A stretch of DNA of 64,000 nucleotides from Clostridia bacterium (GCA_009928785.1 SABY01000001.1:91184-155183); one strand, 5' to 3'; positions 12,106-48,391 are shown, counted from the first letter of the stretch. Made by a program: numbers and translations. The notes: generated by a model not told the origin, from the letters alone.

Positions 12106-13335
12106 CTACTGATTTTCCGGCAAAGGAAATCTTCCATCCCATACAATCTTCAGATAATCCTCGGGATCGGTATCACCCTCGGTGCTGATGATTAAAACCC
12201 GGGCATTTTTATCCAAACCTATTTTTTGGCGTAAAGCCGTATAGGCCGGTTGCATCATCGTCAGCAGTGCGCCGAGCGTTACCGCGCCGGATTCTCCCGA
12301 AATTACACGCGCGTCGTCGCCGATAGGAGCGCCATACACACGCATACCACGGGCTGCCACATAATCCTGACAGGTAACAAAAATATCTGCATAGTCGCGC
12401 AGGATGTTCCATGCTAAAGGGCTGGGATCGCCACATGCCAGTCCGGCCATAATGGTGTCGAGCTTTCCGGGAAAACTGTGTGGCTGTCCGTCGGCCAGGC
12501 GGCACGAACTATAGAGGCAGGCTGCGGTTTCGGGTTCCACCACCACAAAGCGCGGCGGGTTATCGTAATAAAGTTGTTTAAAGTACCCGACGGTTGCCGC
12601 TGCCAATGCGCCCACGCCGCCCTGAACAAAAACGTGTGTGGGTTGGCGAATACCTTCGGCTGCCATTTGTTGCCGTGCTTCGGCAAGCATCGTGGTGTAG
12701 CCTTGCATCACCCAGCGGGGTATCTCCTCGTAACCTTCCCAGGAGGTGTCGGAAATTACCTGCCAGCCATTTGTTTTGGCATCAGCTCCGGCTTGCCGTA
12801 CCGCGTCGTCGTAGGTTCCGGACACCACCACCACGCGCGCTCCCTGCCGGGTAATGGCGTCGATGCGCGCCCGGCTGGTATGCTGATGCACATAGATGAT
12901 GGCCTGATATCCCAGCTCACGTGCCGCCCAGGCTACTCCTATGCCGTGGTTGCCATCGGTGGCAGCCACAAAAACCATAGCTTCGCCATTCGGATACAAC
13001 TTGTGGCTTCGGATTTCGTCATACGAAAGTGGCTGCTCTTTTTTGTGGTGTTGTTGCAGATGTTTGTAAATGGCGAAGGAGCCGCCAAGAACTTTAAAAG
13101 CATTTAAGCCCAGACGCAGCGATTCATCTTTAACAAGTATTTCTTTTACGCCAATTTTGGCAGCCAGTGCCGAAAGTCGTCTCAGTGGGGTGGCGCCGAA
13201 GCCGGGAATCTGATGGTGAAATCTTTGCGCTTCATCAGCGGCTTCAGCAGGGAACAAATTGTCGAGATTTTTGCGATCGGCTGTGCCTTTGGCCAGGCTA
13301 TTGGCTATCCATTGCAGGGTAGGAGAGGTGTTCAT
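12106..13335 (-). CDS. dpaL: Diaminopropionate ammonia-lyase (PLP-dependent, YgeX/DpaL type)
   Basis: 409 aa. Contains FHHQIPGFGATPLRRL, VKDESLRLGLNAFKVLGG (PLP lysine) and ATDGNHG. Confidence 0.85.
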   Translation of the reverse strand: MNTSPTLQWIANSLAKGTADRKNLDNLFPAEAADEAQRFHHQIPGFGATPLRRLSALAAKIGVKEILVKDESLRLGLNAFKVLGGSFAIYKHLQQHHKKEQPLSYDEIRSHKLYPNGEAMVFVAATDGNHGIGVAWAARELGYQAIIYVHQHTSRARIDAITRQGARVVVVSGTYDDAVRQAGADAKTNGWQVISDTSWEGYEEIPRWVMQGYTTMLAEARQQMAAEGIRQPTHVFVQGGVGALAAATVGYFKQLYYDNPPRFVVVEPETAACLYSSCRLADGQPHSFPGKLDTIMAGLACGDPSPLAWNILRDYADIFVTCQDYVAARGMRVYGAPIGDDARVISGESGAVTLGALLTMMQPAYTALRQKIGLDKNARVLIISTEGDTDPEDYLKIVWDGRFPLPENQ

Positions 13336-29431: not shown

Positions 29432-29998
29432 CTAAAACCTGTCAGGGTTATTAATATTCTCCAGCACCGAGCTATGCTCCGACTCGATCGTGTTTCCCTG
29501 ATAGTTATCAAGAAACTCGCTGAAAGGAAGCTGCTGATCACCTATCCGCAAAATCTCTTTTTTAATATAAGATTGCAGCAACACCGGATGGCCGCCTTTG
29601 TCGCGATAGACTGGTTTTACAAAATCATAATCTTTCAGCGCACCCAGGAGCTGGTGAGGCAGCTCAGCGCTGATGGTGGGATTGTCGATATTGTGAATAA
29701 AAAAAGGGAAGTCATTTTCTAAAGCCTGGAGGCCGCATTGTATCGATCCAAACCTCCCACGTTCCGGATGTGGATTTATCACCAGCTTAATCTTTTCCGG
29801 CAAAGGCACCGGATAATCTTTCAGCCATTGCATTCCTTTTGCATTTATCACAACAATAATTTCCCTGCAACCTGCTGTTTCATAAAAATTTGCCAGATGC
29901 TGCAGAAATGTTTCACCATTGCTCAGTGGCAATCCCAGCTTGGGTTGTCCGGCGCGCACCGAAAATCCCGCAGCAAGTATAATTACAGAGCTTTCCAT
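29432..29998 (-). CDS. mocA: MobA-like NTP transferase, molybdenum cofactor cytidylyltransferase (YgfJ/MocA-like)
   Basis: IILAAGFSVRAGQPKLGLPL N-terminal nucleotide-binding motif. Divergent from ygfK. The C-terminal NPDRF is encoded by a repeat arm. Confidence 0.65.
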   Translation of the reverse strand: MESSVIILAAGFSVRAGQPKLGLPLSNGETFLQHLANFYETAGCREIIVVINAKGMQWLKDYPVPLPEKIKLVINPHPERGRFGSIQCGLQALENDFPFFIHNIDNPTISAELPHQLLGALKDYDFVKPVYRDKGGHPVLLQSYIKKEILRIGDQQLPFSEFLDNYQGNTIESEHSSVLENINNPDRF

Positions 29999-37934: not shown

Positions 37935-38561
37935 ATGGATTTTGATATTTTACAATACATAGGTTTTGCTGCCTCGATCATCATTGCACTGTCGATGACC
38001 ATGAACTCCATCCTGAAATTCAGATGGATCAACCTGGCGGGAGCAACCACCTTTTCTATTTATGGTTTCCTGATTGGCGCTTATCCGGTGGGATTGCTCA
38101 ACGCATTCATCGTTTCGGTGGATGTTTATTATCTGGTGCGGATTTATTCCCGAAAGAACTATTTTGATATTCTCGAAATTAAAAGTGACAATCGCTACCT
38201 GATGAAGTTTTTGGATTTTCATCAAAAGGAGATAGAGAAGTTTTTTCCGGGCTTCGTTTACAAGCCTGAGATGAATAGCATCAGCTTTTTTGTGCTCCGC
38301 GACACGCAGGTGGCCGGAATTTTTCTGGCGCATCGCTCCGGTACCGACACTATGAAAGTAGGCCTCGACTATGTGGTGCCCGAATACCGCGATTATCGCA
38401 ACGGAAAGTTTCTCTATACCGGTTTGCAGGAAAGCTTTGTGAGTGCCGGTTTTCGCCGTGCCATTGCCGAGAGTATTAGTCCGAAGCACGAAAAATATCT
38501 GCGCCGGGTAGGATTTGTAAAAGCAGCCGATGGCACATACGTGAAAAATTTCCCGCTGTAA
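37935..38561 (+). CDS. Hypothetical fusion protein: N-terminal 3-TM module plus a C-terminal acetyltransferase-like (GNAT-like) domain
   Basis: Residues 1-75 form three hydrophobic helices (YgjV-like). The C-terminal half has a beta-alpha pattern (VAGIFLAHR...GLDYVVPEYRDYRNGKFLY). The assignment is weak. Confidence 0.45.
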   Translation: MDFDILQYIGFAASIIIALSMTMNSILKFRWINLAGATTFSIYGFLIGAYPVGLLNAFIVSVDVYYLVRIYSRKNYFDILEIKSDNRYLMKFLDFHQKEIEKFFPGFVYKPEMNSISFFVLRDTQVAGIFLAHRSGTDTMKVGLDYVVPEYRDYRNGKFLYTGLQESFVSAGFRRAIAESISPKHEKYLRRVGFVKAADGTYVKNFPL

Positions 38562-42879: not shown

Positions 42880-44100
42880 ATGACTTTACCCAAAAAAATA
42901 TCCACCCACAATTTTTGGTCGTTTCTTTGGCACGCCGGGTTTCTGGCACTTGCCAAAAATTTTATGGACGTCGATACCATCATCCCTGCCATGCTTGTGG
43001 AGGCTGGCGGCGGGGCAATGCATATCGGTATTATGACTGCCATCATGCTGGGCGGTTCGAGTTTCACCCAGCTCTTTTTTGCCCCCTACCTCAGCAACAA
43101 AACGTTCAAAAAGAAATTTTTACTTGGGGGCATTAATGTCCGAATTATTTCCCTGGTCGGACTGGGAGTTTTGCTTTTTTTGTTAAAAGGAGAGCAGGTC
43201 GGTTACGTGCTGTGGCTGGTATTTTTGTTTATCACCCTGTTTTCGCTGGCAGGCGCTTTTGCCAATGTGAGTTATTACGATATTCTCGGGAAATCGGTGA
43301 ATCCCCAAAAGCGGAAAACATTTTTTTCGTCTAATCAAATTATTTCGGGAGTTATCGTTTTGGGTGCCGCTTTCCTGGTAAAAATAGTGTTGGTATGGAA
43401 GAGCTTTCCAGTGAATTATGCATTGATGTTTTTCATCGGTGGGGCGCTGCTATTGATTGCCTCGGGCGGGTTTTGGAGCATCCGCGAAACGGTGCCTTCC
43501 ACCATGAAGATTTCGGGGGTGAGGAACTTTCTCAGCATTATGAAGCACGAACTGAAATCGAACAAGAAGCTGGCTTATTTTCTGGGATTCATCAACACAC
43601 AGGGCATTGCCATTTCGTTTTTGCCTTTTGTAATTTTGTATGCAAAAGAAAATTTCCAGACACAAAGCAGCGACACCGGGAACTTCCTTTTATTCAAGGT
43701 GATCGGGATAGTTTTTGTGAGCCTGTTGGTTTTGCTTGGCGCCAAAAAATTGAAATACAACCTGTTGTTGTACAGCAATGTTTTACTGTCGCTACTGCTC
43801 GGCGTGATGGCCTGGGGGATTTCCGGAATCGATAGTATGAAATACATTTTTGTGGTGGGCGGCGTGGTTTATTCGCTTTACACGATGAGCATGAACGGTT
43901 TGCTTCTGGAGATTTCGGGAACGGAAAACCGCGCGCTTTACACCGGCTTTGCCGGAGCCGGCAACATCCTTCCGGCACTCTTCCCGTTGCTCGGCGGCAC
44001 GCTGATTCAACTTTTTGGATTCGGCTCCTTTTTCGCCCTCTTTATGATTATCATTGCTTCATCTGTTTTTTTTATTTTCAAAATCGACTGCAAAAAATGA
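42880..44100 (+). CDS. MFS transporter
   Basis: 406 aa with about 12 TM helices. Divergent from ygeY. Substrate unknown. Confidence 0.8.
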   Translation: MTLPKKISTHNFWSFLWHAGFLALAKNFMDVDTIIPAMLVEAGGGAMHIGIMTAIMLGGSSFTQLFFAPYLSNKTFKKKFLLGGINVRIISLVGLGVLLFLLKGEQVGYVLWLVFLFITLFSLAGAFANVSYYDILGKSVNPQKRKTFFSSNQIISGVIVLGAAFLVKIVLVWKSFPVNYALMFFIGGALLLIASGGFWSIRETVPSTMKISGVRNFLSIMKHELKSNKKLAYFLGFINTQGIAISFLPFVILYAKENFQTQSSDTGNFLLFKVIGIVFVSLLVLLGAKKLKYNLLLYSNVLLSLLLGVMAWGISGIDSMKYIFVVGGVVYSLYTMSMNGLLLEISGTENRALYTGFAGAGNILPALFPLLGGTLIQLFGFGSFFALFMIIIASSVFFIFKIDCKK

Positions 44101-44361: not shown

Positions 44362-44613
44362 ATGGACGATAACATCTGTGTAAATTACGAAAGTTGCCGC
44401 CTGGTGCAGGCAGCAGATTTCAATTTGAAAGCCGAACAGCGCAGCGAATACTTGCGCAATTATTGCCGGGCGGGAAAAGATGTGTGGCTCACCTGCACGC
44501 GTTACTTTACCAAAAGCCAGCTCAACTTTTGTCCCGATTTTGTGCTGCCCGACACCGATGCTACGCCCGACGAAATCATAGCACGGTTTGATGCGGATGA
44601 AACACTATCTTGA
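44362..44613 (+). CDS. Small cysteine-rich hypothetical protein (83 aa from the internal Met)
   Basis: MDDNICVNYESCRLV...YCRAGKDVWLTCTRY...NFCPDF has six Cys. No family recognised. Confidence 0.4.
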   Translation: MDDNICVNYESCRLVQAADFNLKAEQRSEYLRNYCRAGKDVWLTCTRYFTKSQLNFCPDFVLPDTDATPDEIIARFDADETLS

Positions 44614-44622
44614 AAAAGTAAG

Positions 44623-44736
44623 ATCCAAATTAACAAATTCCAAATGACAAATAAATTCCAAATTCCAAATTCCAAATTCCAAATTCCAATTTCCAAATGA
44701 CAAATAAATTTCAAATGACAAATTTCAAATTCCAAA
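44623..44736. repeat. About 16 tandem heptamers of the ttccaaa family after the small-protein stop
   Basis: attccaa atgacaa ataaatt ccaaatt ccaaatt ccaaatt ...; same family as 37736-37812. Confidence 0.85.
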
Positions 44737-44773
44737 CCGCAGAGCAGTTTGGTCATTGAATTTTAAATATTGA

Positions 44774-44883
44774 GATTTGTTTGGAGCTGTTTACTCCGAC
44801 GCCTGGCGGATGCTTTATTGATTTTTGGGATTTATTTGGAGCTGTTTACTCCGACTCCTGGCGGATGCTTTATTGATTTTTGG
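44774..44883. repeat. 55-bp direct tandem duplication upstream of the dsrC-like gene
   Basis: gatttRtttggagctgtttactccgacKcctggcggatgctttattgatttttgg occurs twice with 2 mismatches. A third copy starts at 44884 and decays into the start region. Confidence 0.85.
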
Positions 44884-44928
44884 ATTTTACATTTTAAACA
44901 TAAATAAAACCACTAAAAACTAACTAAT

Positions 44929-45246
44929 ATGCCTGTTTTAGAACTCGAAGGACGTACATTAGAAGTTGATGGCGACGGTTTCCTGGCAAATCCCGAAATC
45001 TGGGATGCCGAGGTAGCGCAATCGATCGCTCAATACGACGGAATAGAAGAACTGACGGATAAGCACTGGGCGGTAATCAACATCATCCGCACCAACTACG
45101 AAGAAAAAGGGATGGCGCCGATGATACGCACTATTTGCAAAGAAAGCGGTCTGCGGCTGCGCGAAATCTATGAGCTTTTCCCGCTGGGGCCTGCACGTGG
45201 AGCTTGCCGTGTGGCCGGACTTCCCAAACCTGACGGCTGCGTTTAA
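44929..45246 (+). CDS. DsrC/TusE/DsvC-family protein of the two-cysteine (DsrC) type
   Basis: 105 aa. The C-terminal arm is LFPLGPARGACRVAGLPKPDGCV, with the penultimate Cys and a second Cys 11 residues upstream. Confidence 0.85.
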   Translation: MPVLELEGRTLEVDGDGFLANPEIWDAEVAQSIAQYDGIEELTDKHWAVINIIRTNYEEKGMAPMIRTICKESGLRLREIYELFPLGPARGACRVAGLPKPDGCV

Positions 45247-45260
45247 AATCCCTTACAGTT

Positions 45261-45875
45261 ATGGATTGGTATCATTGGATGGCAATCGCGGCGCTGCTGC
45301 TTTGCCTCACAAGTCTCTCGTTGCATCTGCTGCGACTGCTGCGGCTGAACAATCACCGCGACTTCTCCACGCCCACCGGAAAACCGTTGGTTGCTATGCC
45401 GTATGCCTTTATAGGCGCTATGAGCCCTACCAAAAAAGAGAGCGCATATCTGCATCTTCCTACCTACATCGGCGGCTTGCTTTTTCATATCGGCACTTTT
45501 CTGGGTATCGCTTTATTTTTTGTTTTCCTTTTCGGAATAGAAATCTTCCAATGGTTGTTGTGGCCGCTTGCGCTAATAATGGTAATGGGCTCCGTTTCGG
45601 GTGCAGCCATTCTCGTAAAGCGGATGGTGAAGCCGCAGATGCGTTCCCTCTCCAACCCCGACGACTATATCTCCAATCTTTTGGTAACAATATTTCAACT
45701 GGCTACGGCTGCGGTATTATTCTGGCCGCAGGTGTTTCCGGTGTATTTCGTCCTCACAGCCTTGCTATTGCTCTACATTCCTTTAGGAAAACTGAAACAT
45801 GCAATTTACTTTTTCGCAGCCCGCTATCAGTTGGGATATTTCTTTGGAAGGCGCAGCGTATGGCCTCCCCGCTAA
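45261..45875 (+). CDS. Integral membrane protein, NarI/DsrM/HdrE-like putative di-haem cytochrome b
   Basis: 204 aa with about 5 TM helices. Contains a His pair (LHLPTYIGGLLFH) in one helix and IPLGKLKHAIYFF near the C-terminus, resembling the NarI-family PFxRLxH region. The call rests on context with the following gene. Confidence 0.5.
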   Translation: MDWYHWMAIAALLLCLTSLSLHLLRLLRLNNHRDFSTPTGKPLVAMPYAFIGAMSPTKKESAYLHLPTYIGGLLFHIGTFLGIALFFVFLFGIEIFQWLLWPLALIMVMGSVSGAAILVKRMVKPQMRSLSNPDDYISNLLVTIFQLATAAVLFWPQVFPVYFVLTALLLLYIPLGKLKHAIYFFAARYQLGYFFGRRSVWPPR

Positions 45876-47194
45876 CCACAAAAGATGTTGCTCCTATGAA
45901 AACATACACCGACGAAAAAAAGGCCGCAGCCCTTGCTGTGCTTACCACCCAGGCCGACGCCAAACTCATCACGCACATGAATAGCTGCGTGCATTGCGGG
46001 CTTTGCGCCGATAGCTGCATTTATTACCGCGCCATGCCCGACGAAAAATATGTGCCCGCCAAAAAAGTAGATTTGGTAGCTTCTATTTATCGCCGTTACG
46101 CTACCACCACGGGGAAGCTGTTTCCGAAGCTTACCGGCGCCCGCGACCTGGACGATGCCACCATTGATGAAATGGTCGATCTGCTCTATGGCGCCTGCAC
46201 CATGTGTGGCCGCTGCACCATTCACTGTTCCATCGGAGTGGACATCAGCTATGTGGTGCGCAAAGGCCGCGAAATGCTGGCCAACATGGATTTGGTACCC
46301 GCCACTTTACAAAAAACTGTGGACGCTGCGCTCGAAACCGGCAACAACATGGGCATCTCCGATCAGGATTTTATTGATACCCTGGAGTGGCTCGAAGAAG
46401 ACCTGCAGATGGAGATGGAAGACGACAATGTCAAAATTCCGCTTAACGTTACAGGCAAAGACATTCTTTATACGCTCAACCCGCGCGAGCCTAAGTTTTT
46501 CCCGTTGTCGATTACGGCGATGGCCAAAGTTTTTGAAGCCGCTGGCGAAAGCTGGACGCTCAGCACGCGGATGTACGATGTTACCAATTACGCTTACTAC
46601 TCCGGGCATCTGGAGCAGGCTGCCATCATCACGCAGCGCCTGGTGGATGAGGTACGTCATCTGCAGGCCGGCAAAGTGGTGTTGGCTGAGTGCGGTCACG
46701 GTTCGCGCGCATTCAGGTGGGAAGGTCCCAATTATATTCAGCAAACTTTCCCTTTCGAAACCATCACCAGCATAGAGCTGATGCTTCAATACATCCGCGA
46801 GGGACGTATCCGGCTCGATCCGTCCAAAAACAAAGAGGTGGTGACGCTGCACGATCCCTGCAATCTGGTGCGTAGTGGAGGCGTGGTGCAGCAACAACGC
46901 GAAATCCTGAAAGCATCGGTATTGCATTTTGTGGAAATGACCCCACATGGCATCGACAACCTTTGCTGTGGCGGCGGCGGCGGACAACTCGCCATGAGCG
47001 AATACAACGATCGCCGCATGAGTATTGCCCGCCTCAAAGCCGATCAGATAAAAGCTACCGGTGCCACCGTAGTTGTTACACCCTGCCACAATTGCGTGGA
47101 TCAGCTTACGCAAATCAATGTTACCTTCAAATTAGGAGTTCAAATAAAAACACTGGCCGAGATTGTGGCCGATGCCATCGTTCTCGACAAATAA
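45860..47194 (+). CDS. HdrD/DsrK-like iron-sulfur protein with a CCG domain
   Basis: Two ferredoxin motifs (CVHCGLCADSC, CTMCGRCTIHC) and a complete CCG motif C-X34-CC-X38-C-X2-C (HDPC...NLCCGGGGG...TPCHNC). The start is at the internal ATG and overlaps the membrane gene by 16 nt. The ORF-track N-terminal extension from 45170 is out-of-frame overlap. Confidence 0.8.
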   Translation: MASPLTTKDVAPMKTYTDEKKAAALAVLTTQADAKLITHMNSCVHCGLCADSCIYYRAMPDEKYVPAKKVDLVASIYRRYATTTGKLFPKLTGARDLDDATIDEMVDLLYGACTMCGRCTIHCSIGVDISYVVRKGREMLANMDLVPATLQKTVDAALETGNNMGISDQDFIDTLEWLEEDLQMEMEDDNVKIPLNVTGKDILYTLNPREPKFFPLSITAMAKVFEAAGESWTLSTRMYDVTNYAYYSGHLEQAAIITQRLVDEVRHLQAGKVVLAECGHGSRAFRWEGPNYIQQTFPFETITSIELMLQYIREGRIRLDPSKNKEVVTLHDPCNLVRSGGVVQQQREILKASVLHFVEMTPHGIDNLCCGGGGGQLAMSEYNDRRMSIARLKADQIKATGATVVVTPCHNCVDQLTQINVTFKLGVQIKTLAEIVADAIVLDK

Positions 47195-47230
47195 AAACTA
47201 CTTCACTAACTATTTTGATGAAATAAAAAA

Positions 47231-48391
47231 ATGAGCAAACTAATCTATCTCGACAACTCAGCAACTTCGTTTCCCAAGCCCGAAGCGGTGTATCAGTTTA
47301 TGGATCAATTTTATCGCCTGCATGGCGTCAGTCCGGGACGTTCCGGCTTCGATGCCGCCATCGAAACCGAAGAAATTGTGCACAACGCCCGCACGCTGCT
47401 TTGCGATCTTTTTAATGGCGATGATCCCAACAGGCTCACCTTTAGTTACAACGCCAGCGACTCGTTGAACATGATTTTGCAAGGGCTGGCGCGCAAAGGC
47501 GATCATGTGGTGACTACCATGCTCGAACACAACTCGGTGCTGCGCCCGTTGTACCATCTTACCCAAGATGGAATTATCGAAACCACGCATGTTCCCTTCG
47601 ACGCCAACGGCTACGTGCATCCCGACGACATCCGAAAAGCCATCCGTAAAAATACGCGTATGGTAGTGGTAAATCATAGTTCTAATGTAATTGGCACATT
47701 GCAGCCGTTGGCCGAAATCGGCGCCATCTGCAAACAACAAGGCGTTATTTTCGTGGTGGACGCCAGCCAGAGCGCAGGCGCTGTGCCCATTGATGTGCAA
47801 GCCATGGGCATCGACGCTCTGGTCTTTACCGGCCATAAATGTTTGATGGGACCTACCGGCATAGGCGGCTCCTACGTTACCGGGGAGTTGCCAGTACGCG
47901 GAACCCGTTTTGGCGGAACAGGCGTGCGCTCGGCACAAAAAACACATCTCACCGAATATCCTTACCGCCTCGAATGCGGCACGCTCAACATTGTAGGCGT
48001 GGCCGGATTGTATGCCGGCACCAAATGGGTGCTCGAACAGGGCATGGAAAAATTGCACCGGCAGGAGTATTTCCTCTACAATAAATTACGCAACGCCCTT
48101 CAAGAGATAGATCGTGTAATAGTGTATTGTGGTAATAATACCGAAAACCAAAATCCGGTGCTGAGCATCAACATCCAAGGGCTGGAAGCCGGCGACCTAG
48201 GTATGATGCTCGATGTGGATTACAACATCGCTACCCGCACAGGGCTGCAATGCGCACCCTTGGTACATACGGGGCTGGGCACCGACAAAATTCATGGCAC
48301 GGTGCGGCTGAGCATCGGGCCACTCAACGAGGAAGCGCATGTGGATGCTGCCATCGAAGCCATTCGTGAGATAGCTACGCTGCCACGGTAA
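47231..48391 (+). CDS. Class V aminotransferase-fold cysteine desulfurase family protein (short-N-terminus EF2568-like type; possible selenocysteine lyase)
   Basis: IYLDNSATSFPKP start, PLP lysine in FTGHKCLMGPTGIGG, and active-site Cys in ATRTGLQCAPLVH. Confidence 0.8.
   Translation: MSKLIYLDNSATSFPKPEAVYQFMDQFYRLHGVSPGRSGFDAAIETEEIVHNARTLLCDLFNGDDPNRLTFSYNASDSLNMILQGLARKGDHVVTTMLEHNSVLRPLYHLTQDGIIETTHVPFDANGYVHPDDIRKAIRKNTRMVVVNHSSNVIGTLQPLAEIGAICKQQGVIFVVDASQSAGAVPIDVQAMGIDALVFTGHKCLMGPTGIGGSYVTGELPVRGTRFGGTGVRSAQKTHLTEYPYRLECGTLNIVGVAGLYAGTKWVLEQGMEKLHRQEYFLYNKLRNALQEIDRVIVYCGNNTENQNPVLSINIQGLEAGDLGMMLDVDYNIATRTGLQCAPLVHTGLGTDKIHGTVRLSIGPLNEEAHVDAAIEAIREIATLPR

Follow-up and report, generated by a model that had tools for sequence, protein, structure and literature searches.

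The small protein DsrC and the membrane complex DsrMK are usually taken as markers and exclusive partners of the dissimilatory sulfite reductase DsrAB. The larger complex DsrMKJOP has menadiol:DsrC-trisulfide oxidoreductase activity, releasing sulfide (PMC10861901). In the cryo-electron microscopy structure of this complex from Archaeoglobus fulgidus, DsrK carries a single non-cubane cluster and a strictly conserved, non-ligating Cys329, seen as a persulfide with His331 nearby, and Asp500 replaces a supernumerary Cys; in the two-subunit DsrMK complexes, DsrM is predicted to keep a NarI-type site of quinol oxidation (bioRxiv 10.64898/2026.08.25.746951). Comparative Dsr studies treat the DsrC and DsrMK hits in genomes lacking DsrAB as false positives or as a sign of incompleteness (for DsrC false positives, see PMC8477390). 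The present analysis concerns a 64-kb stretch of DNA deposited under the name of a Clostridia bacterium (SABY01000001.1), referred to at its full length as the window. There, five open reading frames (ORFs), all on the plus strand between positions 44362 and 48391, encode a small five-cysteine protein, DsrC, a DsrM-like membrane protein, a DsrK-like iron-sulfur protein and a NifS-like enzyme dependent on pyridoxal phosphate (PLP), together called the cassette (Table 1). All five were found almost exactly where an earlier reading of the bare sequence (the original prediction) had placed them. Their best explanation, with a probability of roughly 45%, is an autonomous operon that would move and reduce sulfane sulfur, i.e., a DsrAB-independent use of DsrC and DsrMK. 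It is supported by the strict synteny of the genes across about 80 species and by the conservation of every expected catalytic residue in DsrC, DsrK, DsrM and the PLP enzyme.

Conservation was investigated by scanning one genome per GTDB species, whereby 377 genomes with a close relative of the DsrK-like protein were obtained. The best 80 of these loci were used for neighbourhood counts and screened by tblastn with the window proteins, including flanks of 10 kb on either side and with at least 40% identity demanded for the genes of the purine cluster discussed below. Among the loci with enough contig, the DsrM-like protein was present in 78 of 78, DsrC in 75 of 75, the PLP enzyme in 68 of 69 and the five-cysteine protein in 54 of 74, most of the Ignavibacteria loci being without the latter. 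The order and strand of the genes were constant, with the exception of two loci that have the small gene downstream, and the median intergenic gaps were 20, 15 and 33 nt. The best 80 loci belong to Bacteroidales (Lentimicrobiaceae, Prolixibacteraceae and metagenome-assembled genomes (MAGs) labelled 'Rikenellaceae') and to Ignavibacteria, and Lentimicrobiaceae/Bacteroidales MAGs share 96% identity with the window. Identity to the window proteins was about 65-78% for DsrK, 64-81% for DsrC, 40-60% for DsrM and 68-83% for the PLP enzyme; the conservation thus spans real evolutionary distance. Moreover, an all-versus-all clustering of the flanking ORFs gave, apart from the five cassette genes, no family shared by over 14 of the 80 loci. 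In metagenomes, relatives of the DsrK-like protein fell into 3794 clusters at E ≤ 1e-20, of which the top 120 were all at least 68% identical; an exact look-up of the window protein yielded just one contig, of 2.3 kb.

Two of the loci deviate in particular ways. Locus L056 (CAZEHA010000023.1) is the only one with enough room past the DsrK-like gene, here about 3.2 kb, in which tblastn found no gene for the PLP enzyme. Locus L078 (SACF01000007.1), labelled 'Alphaproteobacteria bacterium', shares gene families of its cassette and flanks, at near-identical coordinates, with the Prolixibacteraceae locus L063 and is probably a mis-binned or mislabelled contig.

The window ORFs were searched against Pfam and NCBIfam. 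DsrC matched PF04358 with E = 1.8e-35 and 122 bits (cutoff 24.9) and TIGR03342 with 101.9 bits (cutoff 53.5). Its C-terminus, ...GACRVAGLPKPDGCV, carries Cys93 and Cys104, which are the CysB and CysA of the flexible C-terminal arm LFPLGPARGACRVAGLPKPDGCV. CysA104 is kept in 69 of 69 orthologues and CysB93 in 68 of 69, and the whole arm is nearly invariant. The arm segment AGLPKPDGCV has one mismatch to the DiSCo motif AGLPKPTGC, for which one mismatch is allowed (PMC8477390). The best sequence matches in the PDB were 2xsj_C (111 bits), 1ji8 (104 bits) and 2v4j_C (102 bits), compared with 43 bits for the TusE-type sulfurtransferase 7syb; 2xsj_C and 2v4j_C are the DsrC subunits from crystals of DsrAB. 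Identity to the DsrC of Desulfomicrobium was about 55-58% as counted from the printed alignment (111 bits). The TusE equivalog NF008562, on the other hand, gave 66 bits against a cutoff of 191. Because both cysteines are conserved and the scores lie nearer to the DsrC of DsrAB crystals than to TusE, the window protein is by its sequence a genuine two-Cys DsrC and not TusE, and its identification as part of a TusE relay was rejected on the same grounds.

A biosynthetic role could still be imagined, in which a TusE-like DsrC would hand the persulfide to an enzyme of tRNA or cofactor thiolation and DsrMK would keep DsrC reduced. The DsrC/TusE family does have a true biosynthetic member, delivery from a cysteine desulfurase to TusE follows the logic established in E. 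coli, and no TusBCD was found among the window's ORFs of at least 150 aa. This relay is unlikely, given an invariant CysB, an arm of DsrC type and a score under the TusE cutoff; also, no thiolation enzyme (MnmA, ThiI or MiaB-like) was seen repeatedly in the 80 flanks, and a dihaem quinol-oxidising complex would be a costly means to reduce one disulfide.

The DsrK-like protein, the proposed reductase of the sulfane-sulfur operon, has a single CCG domain (PF02754, E = 7e-12) together with a Fer4_8 domain. In 81 sequences, 14 cysteines are invariant: eight make up two CxxCxxCxxxC motifs and five make up the CCG motif C-X34-CC-X38-CxxC (C322, C357, C358, C397 and C400 in the 432-aa numbering), whereas the remaining one is the lone C266, located in an invariant E-C-G-H-G with H268. 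Past the CxxC of the CCG motif, D402 is invariant as well. The correspondence of C266, H268 and D402 in the cassette with C329, H331 and D500 of the A. fulgidus DsrK is one of motif pattern and does not come from a residue-level alignment. The scores against the named families were 301.6 bits for TmcB (cutoff 735), 286 for HmcF (cutoff 750) and 252 for DsrK NF045796 (cutoff 400). The sole PDB sequence match of the protein is 9ojn, a 1042-aa iron-sulfur reductase; the same search found no solved DsrK or DsrM and gave no match for the DsrM-like protein.

The DsrM-like protein had only weak matches to HmcE (E = 2.5e-8, 33.8 bits; cutoff 275) and TmcC (E = 1.8e-4, 21.1 bits; cutoff 240), and in the NCBIfam search it did not match any DsrM model. 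Its AlphaFold model, built with 42 homologues, reached a pLDDT of 88.9 and shows five transmembrane helices (residues 3-28, 63-90, 97-123, 133-154 and 156-197), of which the third is continuous. In the Foldseek search against the PDB, the top eight matches were all NarI (probability 1.0, E = 0.01-0.045, TM-score about 0.49), and the next match had an E-value of 1.5. There are four conserved histidines, at positions 22, 65, 76 and 180. From the model and these residues, the protein is presumed to be a menaquinol-oxidising dihaem anchor. An identity of the two subunits with a Tmc or Hmc complex was rejected, as the scores are far under the equivalog cutoffs and neither TmcA or HmcA nor other subunits are present.

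The PLP enzyme passed the cutoff of TIGR01977 (412.3 bits; cutoff 377), the family of Enterococcus faecalis EF2568; it had 233.8 bits to the SufS subfamily, and its best PDB match was the cysteine desulfurase 5b7s (186 bits). It carries the motif FTGHKC with the PLP-binding Lys203, the motif RTGLQCA with the active-site Cys341, and His100. In 72 orthologues the active-site loop reads R-T-G-L-[Q/H]-C-A, with Q in 46 and H in 25, and H100 is also conserved (72-77 orthologues), as is Lys203. The loop therefore follows the group-II (SufS/CsdA-type) pattern RXGX[H/Q]CA. Group-II desulfurases require, in the systems studied, a dedicated persulfide acceptor, and the co-encoded flexible arm of DsrC would be the obvious candidate. 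Overall, the protein assignments of the original prediction were borne out: the 105-aa DsrC/TusE-fold protein with a genuine DsrC cysteine pair, the five-helix, histidine-rich NarI/DsrM-like protein, the iron-sulfur protein with two ferredoxin motifs and a complete, correctly spaced CCG motif, and the class-V PLP enzyme of EF2568 type with its TGHK lysine and RTGLQCA cysteine. The score comparison and the orthologue counts speak against the opposite outcome considered there for DsrC, a placement within TusE and an upstream Cys that is not conserved.

Some loci contain additional genes next to the cassette. In 14 of the 80, an additional class-V PLP paralogue, around 500 aa long, lies directly before or after it (e.g., at 7238-8704 in L030 and 12558-14081 in L075), with 125 bits to the SufS subfamily and a C-terminal RGGCLCAG. 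In four loci, L040 (6195-20262), L049, L072 and L086, the cassette is extended on both sides. Upstream lie the genes for a regulator of Crp/FNR type, for a NifX-like protein and for a second SufS-like PLP enzyme (506 aa). Downstream follow those for a DsrE2-like protein, TusA, MvhD/FlpD, an HdrA/GltD-like fusion of 930 aa, an HdrA-like protein of 674 aa and a membrane protein resembling QmoC, with 190 bits to qmoC. Judged from this gene content, the extended loci and the SufS-like paralogues form a sulfur-trafficking, quinone-linked redox context.

The strict synteny of DsrC with both the DsrMK-like genes and that for the EF2568-type enzyme makes a chain from the desulfurase via the arm of DsrC to DsrK a reasonable idea. 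This core of the relay put forward in the original prediction finds support in the strict synteny; its target, the neighbouring Mo-hydroxylase, is not conserved in the flanks. In such a chain, the group-II NifS-like enzyme would take sulfur from L-cysteine, leaving alanine and a persulfide on Cys341, and the persulfide sulfur would then pass to the penultimate Cys104 of the DsrC arm as the acceptor. For the reduction, the biochemistry of DsrK suggests two routes. Either the DsrK-like subunit would reduce the sulfane sulfur on DsrC directly via Cys266, or CysB93 would resolve the persulfide and the DsrK-like subunit would reduce the resulting CysA-CysB disulfide. The NarI-like dihaem subunit would oxidise menaquinol and thereby supply the electrons, and the net reaction would be L-Cys + MKH2 → L-Ala + H2S + MK, where MK is menaquinone. 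The five-cysteine protein may be an accessory factor. These three steps were deduced from conserved residues, from synteny and from the biochemical behaviour of homologues. The cassette may serve its hosts, fermentative anaerobes of the FCB group (Bacteroidota, Ignavibacteriota), as a quinol-oxidising sink or as a sulfide generator, with sulfane sulfur derived from cysteine or from other sources as the terminal electron acceptor. That it supports a respiratory, energy-conserving reduction of cysteine or sulfane sulfur through DsrC-DsrMK without sulfite reductase is possible but doubtful.

Several points weigh against the operation of the cassette as a reductase of sulfane sulfur. The known substrate of DsrK is the trisulfide made by DsrAB and not a persulfide, and a simple persulfide hand-over would not obviously require an invariant CysB. 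The proposed steps draw on homologues and on sequence rather than on the biochemistry of these very proteins. Judging by scores that fall short of the equivalog cutoffs set in NCBIfam for DsrK, TmcB/C and HmcE/F, the DsrK-like and DsrM-like proteins constitute a distinct subfamily within the HdrD/DsrK-like clade. As for thermodynamics, the E0' of the couple Cys/(Ala + H2S) is about -0.1 V in a rough estimate from standard free energies of formation, which is close to menaquinone; the quinol-driven step would therefore be near equilibrium with little driving force, and any gain of energy would have to arise upstream, e.g., at NADH:menaquinone oxidoreductases. Finally, SclA of E. faecalis, the sole characterised member of TIGR01977, prefers selenocysteine and is inhibited by cysteine (bioRxiv 10.1101/2020.02.07.939272).

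The latter point opens the question whether the cassette handles selenium instead of sulfur. In that case, a selenocysteine lyase would load the cysteine pair of DsrC with a selenopersulfide or selenotrisulfide, the selenium counterpart of the DsrC trisulfide, and DsrMK with menaquinol would release selenide for SelD (to make Sec, selenouridine or a selenium cofactor) or for detoxification. The selenocysteine specificity of SclA (EF2568) speaks for this, together with the His100 kept by the cassette enzymes. Phylogenetic profiling by Haft and Self also tied TIGR01977 to genomes with selD and the selenium-dependent molybdenum hydroxylase (SDMH; PMC2276186), so the link of EF2568-type enzymes to such genomes is already in the literature and is not new. 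The window organism itself has a selenium-dependent xanthine dehydrogenase (Se-XDH; TIGR03311, 852.6 bits, cutoff 830), and the E. faecalis protein EF2566, a SirA/TusA-related sulfurtransferase, recalls the separate TusA and DsrE2 genes of the loci extended like L040. However, the PLP enzyme reached only 311.6 bits in the SclA model NF040779 (cutoff 525), and the 80 flanks showed no repeated occurrence of selD or of another selenium gene. Moreover, DsrC, DsrMK, TusA and DsrE2 handle sulfur in every studied system, and a trace supply of selenium would hardly require a membrane complex of the respiratory type. Processing of selenium by the cassette is thus improbable. With a selenium-loaded DsrC arm acting together with DsrMK, the assimilation or detoxification of selenium would be coupled, in the anaerobic Bacteroidota and Ignavibacteria, to the pool of respiratory quinones; this seems quite unlikely.

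Returning to sulfur, DsrC and DsrMK might also belong to an ordinary Dsr system, serving an unlinked sulfite reductase of DsrAB or AsrABC type, with the PLP enzyme as a mere neighbour. Indeed, a two-Cys DsrC and DsrMK normally accompany DsrAB (PMC8477390). The window, on the other hand, contains no dsrAB, apr, sat, dsrEFH, tusBCD, selD, yqeB or yqeC among its ORFs of at least 150 aa, which for the first five agrees with the original prediction, and no family of sulfite reductases recurs in the 80 flanks. In a survey of 950 genomes, the DsrAB of Bacteroidota were restricted to Chlorobia and Kapabacteria UBA2268 and did not occur in Bacteroidales (PMC10591310). As the PLP enzyme is syntenic in 68 of 69 loci, its position is not due to chance, and the DsrK and DsrM scores are far under the Dsr equivalog cutoffs. 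An ordinary Dsr system is therefore very unlikely.

The original prediction had joined the cassette to the adjacent selenium-dependent Mo-hydroxylase cluster, proposing that it could supply sulfur or selenium to the cofactor of this enzyme or else drain the electrons of purine oxidation. The cluster is indeed there. Upstream of the cassette, the order is MocA-like protein, YgfK (865 bits), Se-XDH, SsnA, a 208-aa ORF, D-hydantoinase, YgeW, YgeY and a transporter of the major facilitator superfamily (MFS), with YgfK, Se-XDH, SsnA, hydantoinase, YgeW and YgeY all intact. The cassette lies 1.7 kb from ygeY in the window and directly after ygeY in the relatives L008, L087 and L088, which is what favours the connection. 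Nevertheless, YgfK, XDH, SsnA, hydantoinase, YgeW, YgeY and YgeX were found in no flank of the 80 loci except for the YgeY of L008, whose sequence is 96% identical to the window; L007, also 96% identical, shows the MFS gene only. L087 and L088, found by a separate look-up, are 86% identical, belong to the same genus and keep the adjacency to YgeY without the MFS gene. In 56 loci there were at least 8 kb of upstream sequence, and all the more distant loci were without purine-cluster genes. Three long contigs inspected gene by gene had flanks unrelated to those of the window. Since purine genes flank the cassette only in the window's own genus, its position beside the purine/Se-XDH cluster is a genus-level accident of gene order. 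Moreover, the MFS gene that separates the two units is present in some close relatives and missing in others, and the SDMH accessory genes yqeB, yqeC and selD were not found among the larger ORFs of the window. A role in Mo-hydroxylase maturation or as an outlet for purine electrons is thus extremely unlikely, and the identification of the cassette as an SDMH maturation system was rejected. Of the neighbourhood described in the original prediction, the cassette itself proved collinear in the 80 loci (with the five-cysteine gene less constant), while the linkage to ygfK/ssnA is not conserved; a lack of co-occurrence with the Mo-hydroxylase cluster in relatives, which that prediction had itself regarded as decisive against its proposal, is what the flank survey found.

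Table 1. Positions of the cassette genes and of other genes of the window
Feature	Position	Strand	Remarks
Small 83-aa five-cysteine protein	44362-44613	+	Accessory first gene of the cassette (putative); without known family
Two-Cys DsrC, 105 aa	44929-45246	+	PF04358, TIGR03342
DsrM/HmcE/TmcC-like membrane cytochrome b, NarI fold, 204 aa	45261-45875	+	HmcE/TmcC matches, AlphaFold, Foldseek
DsrK/TmcB/HmcF-type cytoplasmic iron-sulfur protein, 432 aa	45896-47194	+	TmcB, HmcF, DsrK, CCG PF02754, Fer4_8
Group-II NifS-like PLP enzyme, TIGR01977 (EF2568) family, 386 aa	47231-48391	+	TIGR01977 above cutoff
MobA/MocA-like nucleotidyltransferase	29432-29998	-	Directly upstream of ygfK
YgeX-type diaminopropionate ammonia-lyase	12106-13335	-	532 bits to NF006058; 17 kb off the rest of the purine cluster
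208-aa ORF between ssnA and the hydantoinase gene	37935-38561	+	No Pfam or NCBIfam match
MFS transporter between ygeY and the cassette	42880-44100	+	Present in the window and L007; absent in L008, L087 and L088

At the junction with the MFS gene, an insertion or a deletion seems to have occurred recently. At the spot of the 208-aa ORF, the relative L087 has a 211-aa gene, also without a Pfam match. Downstream of the cassette there are housekeeping genes, i.e., those for a GWxTD-domain protein, RmuC, TonB, Rho, FtsY and RimO.

Within the cassette, the gaps of 14 nt between dsrC and the DsrM-like gene and of 36 nt between the DsrK-like gene and the gene for the PLP enzyme are as originally described. 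The 16-nt overlap reported for the DsrK-like with the DsrM-like gene is probably not real, the upstream ATG at 45860 being an alternative start. Because homologues have 429-447 aa and close relatives are called as 432 aa, position 45896 is the most likely start of the DsrK-like gene, 20 nt past the end of the DsrM-like gene and without overlap. The spacing between the five-cysteine gene and dsrC is 315 nt in the window (44614-44928), whereas the orthologous loci have a median spacing of 20 nt. This spacer holds about 17 copies of the heptamer TCCAAAT (44624-44736) and a second tandem array made of a 55-nt unit repeated 2.2 times (44770-44887). A scan of the window with Rfam gave no match, and the promoter and terminator scans of the window gave signals no higher than those of shuffled controls.

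The 83-aa protein has five cysteines, at positions 6, 12, 35, 45 and 57, and not six as originally counted; all of them are invariant in the orthologues. It contains the motif CPDF(V/L)LPD and matched no Pfam or NCBIfam family. A word-indexed search returned 11 relatives, and an exhaustive profile search of 1.84 billion proteins returned 119 representatives. The members are essentially all stand-alone proteins of 53-136 aa, and three longer matches, being short and in multiple stretches, were read as spurious; there was no domain fusion among the 119 representatives to hint at a function. The AlphaFold model had a pLDDT of 56, too poor for use.

The literature searched, including the comparative genomics of Dsr, contained no description of the cassette, which is not proof of its being unpublished; a stand-alone module of DsrC, DsrMK and a desulfurase thus appears to be undescribed. 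What makes it unexpected is the firm association of a true two-Cys DsrC, and of a DsrK complete in its catalytic signature, with a NifS-like enzyme in at least 377 species-level genomes, the carriers being non-sulfate-reducing anaerobes that commonly live in digesters, in sediments and in groundwater. If the DsrAB-independent reading is true, the cassette would provide a new quinone-linked route from cysteine or other sulfane sulfur to sulfide, and a natural system for testing if a simple persulfide can be reduced by DsrK. It would also call for caution in the metagenomic scoring of 'Dsr pathway' potential. The tempting link to selenium-dependent purine catabolism is removed as unsupported, and what remains is a widespread, sharply conserved system which is directly testable.

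In comparison with the DsrC and DsrMK of sulfite and sulfate reducers, the cassette has the same two-Cys DsrC arm, a membrane subunit with the NarI fold and presumably two haems, two cubane motifs with one CCG non-cubane motif, and the conserved C-x-H and Asp. It is without the JOP subunits of DsrMKJOP, as are the older two-subunit DsrMK complexes, for which quinol oxidation at DsrM is predicted. The differences are that DsrAB is missing from the window and from all 80 flanks, that a NifS-like PLP enzyme is the partner instead, and that the hosts are fermentative or facultative Bacteroidales and Ignavibacteria. The highest-scoring named relatives are TmcBC and HmcEF of Desulfovibrio, which have the same architecture of a cytochrome b with an HdrD-like protein. 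The cassette, however, stays far under their cutoffs and lacks the cytochromes c TmcA and HmcA and the other Tmc/Hmc subunits.

The proposed transfer of a desulfurase-derived persulfide onto the penultimate Cys would resemble the relays IscS-TusA-TusBCD-TusE of E. coli and TusA-DsrEFH-DsrC of Allochromatium, and TusA and DsrE2 genes occur beside the cassette in four loci. Unlike in these relays, the core has neither TusBCD nor DsrEFH; the desulfurase is of group II and not IscS, its DsrC has CysB, and the downstream partner would be a membrane reductase instead of MnmA or rDsrAB. With the EF2568/SclA locus of E. faecalis (selD, the TusA/DsrE-like EF2566 and Se-XDH), the cassette shares the TIGR01977 family and, in the window, the proximity to an Se-XDH. 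Yet its enzyme falls under the SclA cutoff, there is no adjacent selD, the XDH adjacency is not conserved, and the Enterococcus locus has no DsrC or DsrMK, to which the PLP enzyme of the cassette is coupled. The group-II loop RXGX[H/Q]CA is finally shared with SufS-SufE/SufU and CsdA-CsdE, studied systems in which the acceptor is encoded nearby; in the cassette, the proposed acceptor has the DsrC fold rather than that of SufE, SufU or CsdE, and no Fe-S scaffold genes are linked to it.

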